Source: Zootoca vivipara (taxonomy: Eukaryota). Taken from it: DNA of 64,000 nucleotides. The notes beneath the pieces are model-generated. The model saw nothing but the letters and a program-made list of their open reading frames with translations, was not told where the DNA came from and ran no database searches. The translations under genes and the position numbers were made by a program. This document shows positions 985 through 21,366 of this stretch, one piece after another; positions within the stretch are counted from its first letter, which is position 1; every line of letters begins with the position of its first letter. The stretch is taken from positions 82,460,001 through 82,524,000 of the forward strand of contig NC_083279.1 of NCBI RefSeq assembly GCF_963506605.1. Reading direction: 5' to 3'.

Positions 985-3900
985 ATGGATCTCTCTATCA
1001 GTGCTGTGGTCTTCCTGTTCCTCACCTACCACCTCTGTGAGGCAGGTGGTCGAAGCTATAATTCAATCCTCATGGTGCCCAATGGCGGGAAGTGGGGAGA
1101 ATGGGGAAAAATTCAAATCTGTCCCTCAGGATATGCATTCGGATTCGCATTGAAGGTAAAGGCTTCTCTATATCTTCTTTTTGATACCCTGACCCCAAGG
1201 AGTAGTATAATAGTATAGTATAGTATAATATAATTAATATAATATAATATAATATAATATATATATTTCAAGTTGCTTCCCATCTTTCTTTCAGGGGCTG
1301 CTCTTGATGATAGGGGGAGGTACTCTGTACTCTCTCCCCCTTACAATATATATTTCAAGTTGATTGCCATCTTTCTTTCTGAACCTATTGCCTGTATATT
1401 GCTGCCTGCAAGGTTCTTTGAAGTGTTGACTGCCATGCTTAAAGATTTAATAGCTCTAAAAAGTCTCCATGCCACTTTGTCTATCCACAATGGAGAGGCT
1501 TAGAGCAAATTGGATTTTACATAAAAGAAAACTACCATGAATCTGGATGGTCTAGAGCAGGCATCCCCAAACTTCGGCCCTCCAGATGTTTTGGACTACA
1601 ATTCCCATCATCCCTGACCACTGGTCCTGTTAGCTAGGGATCATGGGAGTTGTAGGCCAAAACATCTGGAGGGCCGCAGTTTGGGGATGCCTGGTCTAGA
1701 GGAAAAAAGGGACAAGGATACAGACAAGTTTGGAGTGCAATGAGCTGGCAATATTGTGGTCAGGTTTATCTCCCTGAAAGGTGAGCGCCCAATTGGCAAA
1801 TGCAGACTAAACTGTTAGTGTGAAAGCAATCTTGGTCAGTTCTGGTGCTTTCTAGGAGGGTTGCCATACATCCAGATTTTCCCTGAAATGTCCAGGATTT
1901 CAACAACTTTCCCCAAAAAAGCTCAACAAGTTTTTGTGTCCGGGTTTCACTTCTTGAAATAATATGGCAACCCTAACTTCACAAACTGGAGGAAACCTGC
2001 TGTGGAATATGAAGACATAAGAGAGGGATGGAGGGTGCCTCAGCCAGTCATTATCAAGATCAATTTTTTCTTATTAAATTTGCTTACTTGGGGCCATTGG
2101 ACTGGTTGCACCAAAAAGCTACTGTCTTTTGGTGCAGCTGGGAATGTAAACCTTAATCCATAACCAGTTAATACTTGTACACAAGTAGGGGCCTGTAAGC
2201 TACGGTATTACTTTGGAAAATTTAGACTGCAGACGCAGTCTGAATGGGAGTGTTGTCAGAGTCCAAGTTCGGTTAACTACAATAACAACCCCCCTTTTGT
2301 ATCATACATAATATCTTTTTTCTGTTTTGTTTTCTACATGGGTACGATTTCTTGTTTCTTCAGTTTTGTGTCTGGTCTTACTCTGTACACTTGTAATTTT
2401 TTTATTTTTCAATAAAGGATATAAAACAGAATCATAGCTTGCAAAAACAGCTTTATTGCAGTCTCTTTCTCTCTTTTCCACCAGGTACAGGGAAAACAAG
2501 GTATGTCTACTGATGATACTTCCCTCAATGGCATCCGTCTCCATTGCAGTAGGGGTGACGTTGTACAATCTACCGTCGGACCGTGAGCATCTTCTTGGCT
2601 TTTCTCTGTTTTGTTTGGAAAGTGATGGTGTGAGGGGCTGGCTGAAATCTATTATGCTTCAGCACCAGGGCAGGATAATATCAGGTCAGGGTCTATCAGC
2701 CTCATTCTCAGCTCTCGGAGCCTAAGGATACCAACTCTAGGTTGCCTTCCGAATTTTAGAGGGACCCAAGCCCCACATAACAAAGAGGAAAGAGACTGCA
2801 ACAACAGAGTACAAAGGTCAGGAAAAGCAGAGTTTCTTCCTGAGGACCAGACATCCCAAGGAAAGAGAGAGCAAGAGGAAACCGCCATCTATCCTGAGAG
2901 TGGGGAACCTCAAGTCCAGGGGTCAAATGTGGTCCCCTAGGCTTCTCTGTCTGGTCCTCATGAATATCTGTGACTGTTACAGATATCCCAGCTCCTTTGA
3001 TGACCACACAATTGTTTTGGTACCAGAGATGCTCTGTAACATATTCAAGCAAGACCCCAGCCCCCAGTCTCCAATGCAACACAGAAGACAATTGCTAGGG
3101 CTGGTTAGATGTCCTCATGCCACCCCATTTTGTCTATCTTGGATAGACGATAAATCTACTTGTCAGAGCATTTCGGCTTTGAAACCCCAACCACCTCAGT
3201 GGTGGACTGGTGGTAGAAAGCAAAAAAGATATCACATACTGTTGTATAATATTAATATTAATAGTACAGATAACTACAATATATATATAAGAGAACTACA
3301 ATACAGTGGTACCCCACAAGACGAATGCCTCATGCAACGAAAAACTCACAAGATGAAAGCGTTTTGCATTGCGCGAGGCGTCTCGCAAGACGAAGTTTCC
3401 TATGACCGCGCTTCACAAGATGCAGGGCCGTCTTGAGCAGATCGCGCGCCCTGGTGCTGAGGGGCTGAGATCGCTTCGCCGCCCGCCCCGCCCTCGCAGG
3501 GCGCAATTGGTTTCTGTGCGGCTTTGCCAGCCCCGTGCCATGCTGCACTGCGCCACCGGGGGTCTACGAAGAGCCGGCCCTGACAAGATGAATAGGAACG
3601 CATTAACTAAATGGGTAGACGGGGTAAACCAAGAAAATTTTAAACCATGCTTTGCAAGATGAATTTTTTGCTATACAAAGCAACTCACAGAACAAATTAT
3701 TTTTATCTTGCAAGGTACCACTGTATCTTGTAATCAATTTTAGGCACTTACCAGCATCTGTTTTCATGAAAATTGGGGAATAACCTATACGTTTCAATGA
3801 CAGATTTTTTTAAAAAAAAATGTTTAAAAGTAGGAACTTTTCACATAGAGATTTACCAAGCAAGACCTCAATATTTACAAGGAACCAAATTAGATTTCAA

Positions 3901-4627
3901 ATTACCTCATCATACCACAACTTTTTAACACCCCTCAAATCAGGATTTTTAAAGATGGAAAATTCAACACGCCCTAATATTAGGGTTTAAAACCCCTTTA
4001 AAGATTCTTTAGCTCCATCCCTAGATTGTTCCAGGGGCAGATTGGGAGGGTGTGGTGTGGGTGACCCCTGGGTGGCACAGGGCAAATCCACCTAATCCAG
4101 GGCTCACAACACACAGCCCTTCTTATAAGCTGAGGTTTGGGAGACATACTATACCTGATGAGGTCTACAAAAGACACCTTTAAAAAAATCTAAGGAGGCA
4201 ACTGCCCTCTTGACTTTCGTGTGGAAAGCAATTCATTCCAATTTAGGTCATATTTCCAGAGGAGGCAGACATTACCACATTGTCTCTTTTCTTTTCTTTT
4301 CTTTTCTTTTCTTTTCTTTTCTTTTCTTCTTGCAGGTTGGGAGAGTGGACAAAGATTAAGGAATGCCCCAAGGACTACCTGGTTTCCTTCGCTCTCAGAG
4401 TGGAAGACGATCAAGGGATGTCTGATGATACGGCAGCCAACAACATCCAGTTCAACTGTGGAGATGGGACTGGACTGGAGGGCGAGGGACTGGACTTCGG
4501 TACTTACGGCCCGTCGAGCAAGCGCTGCAAAACTGGTTCCATCTGCGGGATCCAAACAAAGGTGGAGATAGGTTCAAGTAATGATGAAACAGCACTTAAT
4601 GATGTCAGGTTCTTCTGCTGTGACTGA
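985..4627 (+). CDS. VMO1: VMO1-like copy 1; exons 985-1155, 2485-2582, 4336-4627; 186 aa secreted protein
   Basis: GT-AG splice sites join 171+98+292 nt in frame. Signal peptide [91 protein letters not shown]; 8 mature Cys, as in the VMO1 family. The ORF track misses exon 2. Confidence 0.93.
1204..1266. repeat. (TATAG)/(TATAA)n microsatellite in intron 1 of copy 1
   Basis: Visible tandem repeat. Confidence 0.85.
1293..1345 (-). mobile_element. 53-bp terminal remnant of the solo LTR found at 50916-51354
   Basis: Matches 51302-51354 (AGGGGCTGCTCTTGATGATAGGGGGAGG...CCCCTTACA). Confidence 0.8.
1558..1693. mobile_element. hAT-type MITE (136 bp, palindromic)
   Basis: TIR CAGGCATCCCCAAACT; 8-bp TSD GTCTAGAG (1550-1557, 1694-1701); empty site in copy 2. 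Confidence 0.92.
3304..3723. mobile_element. Tc1/mariner (Tigger-like) MITE
   Basis: TIR CAGTGGTACC...GGTACCACTG flanked by TA. Confidence 0.8.
3423..3582. mobile_element. hAT-type MITE nested in the Tigger-like MITE
   Basis: TIR CAGGGCCG...CGGCCCTG; 8-bp TSD ACAAGATG. Confidence 0.85.
4286..4328. repeat. (CTTTT)n microsatellite in the polypyrimidine tract before exon 3 of copy 1
   Basis: Visible repeat; much shorter in copy 2. Confidence 0.85.
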
Positions 4628-21200: not shown

Positions 21201-21366
21201 AGATGGGACTGGACTGGAGGGCAAGGGACTGGACTTCGGTACTTACGGCCCGTGGAGCAAGCGCTGCACCGCTGGTTCCATCTGCGGGATCCAAACAAAG
21301 GTGGAGATAGGTTCAAGTAATGATGAAACAGCACTTAATGATGTCAGGTTCTTCTGCTGTGACTGA
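18217..21366 (+). CDS. VMO1: VMO1-like copy 2; exons 18217-18387, 19838-19935, 21075-21366; 186 aa
   Basis: Same exon sizes and phases as copy 1, canonical splice sites, no stops; exon 2 [32 protein letters not shown]. Confidence 0.93.
18422..18578. other. Assembly gap (157 N)
   Basis: Run of N at the intron-1 microsatellite position. Confidence 0.99.
19024..19613 (-). mobile_element. Penelope-like retroelement, 5'-truncated, in intron 1 of copy 2
   Basis: GIY-YIG endonuclease half [46 protein letters not shown]. Confidence 0.92.
19112..19146 (-). ncRNA. Minimal hammerhead ribozyme core in the Penelope terminus
   Basis: CTGAAGA-A-GTGTG CATG CACAC-GAAA-GC-TC-ATACC; 5' arm of helix I missing. 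Confidence 0.6.

Follow-up and report, generated by a model that had tools for sequence, protein, structure and literature searches.

The stretch of the Zootoca vivipara genome analysed here, hereafter the window, spans 64,000 nt (GCF_963506605.1, contig NC_083279.1, positions 82,460,001 to 82,524,000 of the forward strand) and harbours four three-exon VMO1-like genes, all on the + strand. They are part of a cluster in whose young subfamily amino-acid change exceeds the rate of neutral DNA, and in which positive selection is real. Copy 1 comprises exon 1 (985–1155), with a putative signal peptide in codons 1–20 followed by the start of the mature protein, exon 2 (2485–2582) and exon 3 (4336–4627), while the exons of copy 2 lie at 18217–18387, 19838–19935 and 21075–21366. 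Both genes code for 186 aa and have GT-AG introns. Exon 2 carries the first of three hypervariable hairpin loops (loop 1, codons 59–70, at 2488–2523 in copy 1 and 19841–19876 in copy 2), and exon 3 the two others (loop 2, codons 113–123, at 4403–4435 and 21142–21174; loop 3, codons 167–176, at 4565–4594 and 21304–21333). Copy 3 (32251–37318; exons 32251–32421, 33537–33634 and 37021–37318) codes for 188 aa, and copy 4 (50663–56533; exons 50663–50833, 52371–52465 and 56239–56533) for 186 aa. The 3' untranslated region and downstream flank of the duplication unit, also on the + strand, extend over 4628–8338 in copy 1, with a long interspersed nuclear element (LINE) fragment inside that matches reverse transcriptase, and over 21367–30585 in copy 2, where a provirus at 23398–28825 splits them. 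The proteins of copies 1, 2 and 4 are identical to XP_060129280.1, XP_034971858.2 and XP_060129989.1, respectively. With regard to expression, one run, of a kind not recorded, yielded a 685-nt contig in which exons 2 and 3 meet at the predicted junction and four listed exon-3 sites have the copy-1 letters, so that a copy-1-like spliced transcript exists; three raw RNA runs under the same species label, covered to about 6% of each, yielded no exon reads and are evidence in neither direction.

Copies 1 and 2 are VMO1-like genes of Z. vivipara. VOMI (PF03762) was the sole Pfam domain found in all three proteins tested (E 1e-49 to 1e-52; 166–177 bits against a cut-off of 25, over residues 30–185). 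An alignment-based AlphaFold model with a predicted local distance difference test (pLDDT) score of 84 was used to read the fold, a single-sequence model (pLDDT 37) being set aside. Its top Foldseek match is chicken VMO-I (1vmo_A; template modelling (TM) score 0.81, root mean square deviation 1.8 Å, 59% identity), followed by jacalin-type lectins, and model and match together bear out a predicted beta-prism fold with three repeats. A hydrophobic helix at residues 3–18 of the model lies at the putative signal peptide. Mature copies 1–4 have eight Cys, a number fitting four predicted disulfides, and all six young genes keep them. The lizard proteins thus share with chicken VMO1 (PDB 1VMO) the domain, the fold, the three internal repeats, the eight Cys and an acidic motif per hairpin loop, but they differ in being encoded by many copies, in being acidic rather than cationic (isoelectric point, pI, of 4.9–5.3 for copies 1–4, against 10.0) and in having hypervariable loops. 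The cationic surface, absent from copies 1–4, is a trait of the chicken protein and does not define the family. A venom toxin gene was considered and rejected, as the Pfam search of the proteins returned only VOMI and no toxin domain; the term toxin-like, used in the initial annotation, is apt as an analogy of evolutionary pattern and mistaken as an identity. The genes do not encode a toxin; their evolution likely reflects a routine arms race in defence or at the egg coat.

Between copies 1 and 2, 34 of 558 coding nucleotides differ (6.1%), in 27 codons, 23 of them with a replacement and 4 silent. This matches exactly the count given in the initial annotation, whose estimates of about 2% for the flank at 5340–5990 and about 5% for the first 250 nt past the stop were likewise reproduced (11/650, 1.7%, and 12/250, 4.8%). 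The coding sequence exceeds that flank at p=5e-5, but hardly any other long stretch available is so little diverged, and the fair contrast is therefore with the introns, which differ at 52/1432 positions (3.6%; p=0.019), an N stretch at 18422–18578 in intron 1 of copy 2 lying outside the comparison. Hence, the claim that coding divergence exceeds non-coding divergence holds against introns, whereas the 1.7% flank chosen to make it was a low-divergence comparator. All alignable non-coding DNA out to 6637 differs at 102/3567 positions (2.9%), and the downstream flank beyond the first 250 nt at about 2.2%. Replacement sites are above introns (28/427, p=0.014), and silent sites are not (6/131, p=0.63; fourfold sites, 3/80, likewise); the second codon positions of this pair (10/186) do not differ significantly from introns (p=0.23). 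Clustering of the differences is borderline (p=0.058). A pair-only M1a/M2a comparison (13.8, omega 36 on 6% of sites) was not relied on, since it is unstable with two sequences carrying multi-base codon changes.

It is the family, more than this pair, that supports positive selection. The main codon tests cover six intact young paralogues, whose introns differ by 4–8% and whose nonsynonymous divergence (dN) ranges from 0.07 to 0.28. In 14 of the 15 pairs, all but copy 1/copy 2, second codon positions are more diverged than introns at p<0.001; fourfold sites are so in 0 of 15, and in both counts the pairs are non-independent. CpG sites account for 7 of the 14 silent-variable codons. At non-CpG sites, fourfold positions vary at intron level (4/39 against 114/893 in introns, p=0.81), whereas variation at second positions (54/148) is about threefold that of introns (p=5e-11). 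Twice the log-likelihood difference (2dlnL) reached 64.7 for M1a/M2a, with about 26% of sites at an omega (dN/dS, dS being synonymous divergence) of 5.9, 64.8 for M7/M8, the comparison that the initial annotation had proposed, and 64.7 for M8a/M8. The M1a/M2a statistic was 53.8 with per-exon trees and 29.7 when double and triple hits were allowed; it was 20.7 with site-to-site variation of the silent rate (13.2, p=0.0014, on adding multiple hits) and 18.7 without 40 indel-adjacent codons (10.7 without them and with multiple hits). The highest value in null simulations was 7.2 over 15 runs on one tree and 10.1 over 30 runs on mosaic trees, and the main value of 64.7 is far outside this simulated null. 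The dN/dS above 1 anticipated in the initial annotation was accordingly found for a class of sites in the six paralogues, and not for the pair alone, whose estimates of 1.45–1.71 are not significant. A second young pair, g07/g09, has an omega of 4.7 (p=0.002), or 3.3 with multiple hits (p=0.04), while in five older members the mean omega is 0.50 and a small class of sites is under selection (2dlnL 15.2).

The replacement excess is concentrated in the three loops, which in the model are long, symmetry-equivalent hairpins, each closed by an acidic motif (D120 and D173 being invariant in 64 homologues). In the loops, 13 of 33 sites have a posterior above 0.95, compared with 4 of 133 elsewhere. 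Loop omega is 3.2–3.9 when set against the loops' own silent rate, and omega in the rest of the mature protein is 1.3, which as an average is not significant. Judging from the symmetry and the acidic motifs, the three loops likely ring a sugar-binding cavity.

Several points weigh against selection on the loops. The codon models are our own implementation with naive empirical Bayes (NEB) posteriors, not PAML or HyPhy; 6 of the 30 mosaic null runs passed the nominal 5% cut-off, so that nominal p-values are too generous; and the most cautious statistics (10.7 and 13.2) are near the null maximum, the simulated nulls having used other models. Furthermore, the neutral tree length of the codon model (0.36) is about twice that of introns (0.19), and third positions are also raised in the loops (16/92 against 54/869). 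For copies 1 and 2 by themselves, dN/dS is 1.45 by the Nei–Gojobori method (NG86, one-sided p=0.28) and 1.71 by maximum likelihood (p=0.26 against 1), which makes this ratio suggestive only, and their changes are not loop-enriched (7/33 against 15/133, p=0.15). Divergence in intron 2 is 14% next to exon 2 and tapers to 1.6% at 300–400 nt; like the tree length and the raised third positions, this speaks against point mutation alone. At the functional level, the heparin-linked antibacterial action of chicken VMO1 may not carry over, because the lizard copies are acidic and the chicken protein cationic.

The taper in intron 2 bears on gene conversion, which does act at the locus. A test modelled on the pairwise homoplasy index (PHI-like; 125 informative sites, 7 copies) gave p=0.0005, the copies being mosaics, and at 4807–4866 copy 2 falls with copies 3 and 4, not with copy 1. 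For 14 of the 34 exon and 20 of the 52 intron differences between copies 1 and 2, both states are found in other paralogues. With these shared-state differences removed, introns fall to 2.2%, the level of the downstream flank, which suggests that the flank gives the age of the pair and that tracts from third copies may have raised the divergence of the gene body. GC-biased conversion was ruled out, singletons being strong-to-weak in 46 cases and weak-to-strong in 30. Since conversion is present, the contrast between exon and flank is insufficient evidence by itself: introns and flanks might have been homogenised, or old tracts imported into exons, so that exons only look faster, and conversion is able to mimic positive selection (PMC3924837). 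Nevertheless, older exons would have raised silent sites too, and non-CpG fourfold sites stand at intron level; exons and introns do not differ in their share of shared states (p=0.82); 17.5 of the 20 private exon differences are replacements (p=0.039 against the private intron rate); and the extreme mosaic nulls go up to 10.1, as against 64.7. A peak of divergence that persists in the face of conversion is, moreover, described as a mark of selection in its own right (PMC3924837). The fourfold and second positions thus speak against homogenised flanks beside merely older exons, the outcome that the initial annotation had singled out as refuting, and we regard such an artefact as improbable. 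Conversion acts, the loops are protected and driven by selection, and greater age alone does not account for the exons. Opsins, major histocompatibility complex (MHC) genes and resistance (R) genes similarly include mosaic paralogues with a divergence peak at selected exons (PMC3924837), but in the lizard silent non-CpG sites outside the loops are not older than introns, so that new replacement changes dominate.

Relaxed constraint, whereby redundant copies drift at an omega of about 1 and multi-base mutations in the loops inflate the estimate, would suit the pair, whose omega is indistinguishable from 1, the loss in copy 1 of the Trp at codon 150 kept in the other five young paralogues, the six or so of 19 cluster loci that look broken or partial, and the non-significant average outside the loops. 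It cannot, however, account for replacement sites that change about three times as fast as introns; the six young genes retain all eight Cys, and neutrality is still rejected by multi-hit models, which leaves drift a poor explanation, if a marginally better one than conversion. It is scarcely credible that the assembly set two alleles of one gene side by side as copies 1 and 2: their downstream flanks differ by only about 2.2%, but the copies carry different intron insertions, their upstream DNA is alignable for only 129 nt before the ATG, the provirus is in one flank only, and 3.6% intron divergence is high for alleles. There remains the same positive selection with reproduction as its driver, through the sperm–egg coat, male–female interaction or a remodelling of the egg envelope with live birth. 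Z. vivipara has egg-laying and live-bearing lineages, whereas Podarcis and Lacerta lay eggs. In a quick protein tree of 56 rows (14 genes of this genome and 42 of 96 homologues, from one word-based search and therefore incomplete), copies 1–4 and three neighbours share a lacertid clade of 15 rows with six proteins of Podarcis and two of Lacerta (Shimodaira–Hasegawa-like approximate likelihood ratio test, SH-aLRT, 99). Because the fast subclade is also expanded in these egg-laying genera, live birth was not the start of the expansion; besides, many divergent copies per genome would fit a recognition repertoire better than one receptor–ligand pair. Chicken VMO1 occurs in the outer vitelline membrane, as a major protein, and also in seminal plasma and sperm (PMC9363672), and a reproductive driver, although unlikely, deserves to be kept in mind.

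Taken together, the data show what the genes are, that they are duplicates of mosaic ancestry, and that replacements exceed the silent and intronic rates with a concentration in the loops. We put at about three in four the probability of the full reading, in which these are young lacertid VMO1 duplicates whose three selected loops probably surround the sugar-binding cavity of a secreted lectin of the beta-prism type. Unequal crossing-over would make new copies in a birth-and-death process of duplication, conversion would shuffle tracts among them, and diversifying selection would retune the loops such that each copy might bind a different glycan. The selective agent, like secretion and sugar binding, is proposed by analogy with the chicken protein, which is made in the oviduct, binds carbohydrate and heparin, is moderately antibacterial and has an acidic cavity at the prism's top, its main function being stated as uncertain even in chicken (PMC9363672). 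On the same analogy, microbial surface sugars in oviduct or egg secretions would be the most likely ligands, and, given selection, we consider microbial glycans, met in oviduct or egg, somewhat likelier as the driver than gamete interaction. It is a bolder and rather doubtful proposal that the germline of lacertids maintains a repertoire of beta-prism lectins for recognising glycans in defence of egg or skin, each with three hypervariable loops that resemble those of antibodies and owe their diversity to selection and to conversion among copies; in Z. vivipara, the content of the repertoire could differ between the egg-laying and live-bearing lineages. Near-identical copies differing mainly in three loops offer a natural specificity series for what VMO1 binds and which residues decide, and the two reproductive modes of Z. 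vivipara make a role in egg protection testable within one species.

A young tandem array with selected surface loops is a common pattern. In snake venom phospholipase A2 (PLA2) genes, exons are accelerated, and mature exons evolve faster than introns and the signal peptide. Like these genes, and like the arrays of small serum proteins in Protobothrops (PMC6609765), the lizard cluster is a squamate tandem array with replacement-biased, accelerated coding change, but VMO1 is an unrelated family with no venom context. A VMO1 transcript is mentioned for one snake venom gland, with no toxic role stated in that passage (PMC9363672). In the Amur ide, eight VMO1 paralogues, read as egg protection, form a comparable expansion (PMC5854124); this species is a teleost, and site-level selection does not figure in the passages on VMO1 of that report. 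Expansion of VMO1 is already published for the Amur ide; the lacertid cluster is a fresh instance of a known pattern. Our literature search, which covered openly accessible papers, most of them by listing, found no publication on the lacertid cluster. The Anolis carolinensis genome paper of Alfoldi et al. (2011) reportedly describes a lizard-specific expansion of the egg-protein gene VMO1 with positively selected residues in an acidic, probably substrate-binding cavity, so that the pattern has probably been reported there already. As distinct from that account, the present case concerns a lacertid subclade with its own sub-expansions, measured against introns, and in which conversion is demonstrated.

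On the scale of the genome, a search returned at least 20 exon-3 matches on contig C4 (82.36–82.60 Mb) and one on C13. The C4 matches represent 19 loci, one frameshifted exon having been counted twice; intact frames could be built for 13, and the six broken or partial loci stayed outside the codon tests. Within the lacertid clade, clear one-to-one orthologues are not apparent in the quick tree, and the best Podarcis or Lacerta match is 69–79% identical for copies 1–4 and the three neighbours, against 91% and 93% for two old cluster members. Codon 150 (window 4514–4516) encodes Ser in copy 1 and Trp in the other five young paralogues, a change that may be damaging or may alter specificity. The divergent young pair L007/L010 (g07 and g09; C4 ~82.415–82.418 and ~82.442–82.445 Mb) no longer carries the acidic motifs in loops 2 and 3 and is basic (pI 8.4–8.9), possibly with a changed ligand. 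L012 (C4 ~82.526–82.528 Mb), whose exons 2 and 3 are close to those of g08, has no exon 1 within 9.7 kb upstream and is a possible partial duplicate or conversion donor. L016 (g16; C4 ~82.566–82.570 Mb) lacks the acceptor of exon 2 together with that exon's first 26 nt, for which reason it was excluded, although NCBI still models a protein of 186 aa. L021 (C13 ~54.352–54.356 Mb, - strand) is a single GC-rich VMO1 homologue outside the cluster, which groups with mammal, turtle and alligator 'homolog' genes in the quick tree.

As for mobile elements, the provirus at 23398–28825 (- strand) has two identical long terminal repeats of 345 nt (345/345) and matches gag p10/p24, the reverse transcriptase thumb and integrase. 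It interrupts the LINE fragment that lies downstream of copy 2, and the corresponding position beside copy 1 is free of it; its insertion is very recent and later than the duplication. The stop-to-stop frames at 60836–61675 (279 aa) and 62635–63675 (346 aa) have no Pfam match and lie in repeat-rich DNA. A palindromic short element resembling a miniature inverted-repeat transposable element (MITE-like) occupies 1550–1700 in intron 1 of copy 1 and is absent from copy 2; its RNA read depth, in the thousands-fold range, comes from other loci. Between copies 3 and 4, a 2.1-kb segment is duplicated at 98% identity within 41860–46826 (41860–43970 and 44682–46826), and the duplicated segment holds pieces of the VMO1 3' flank.

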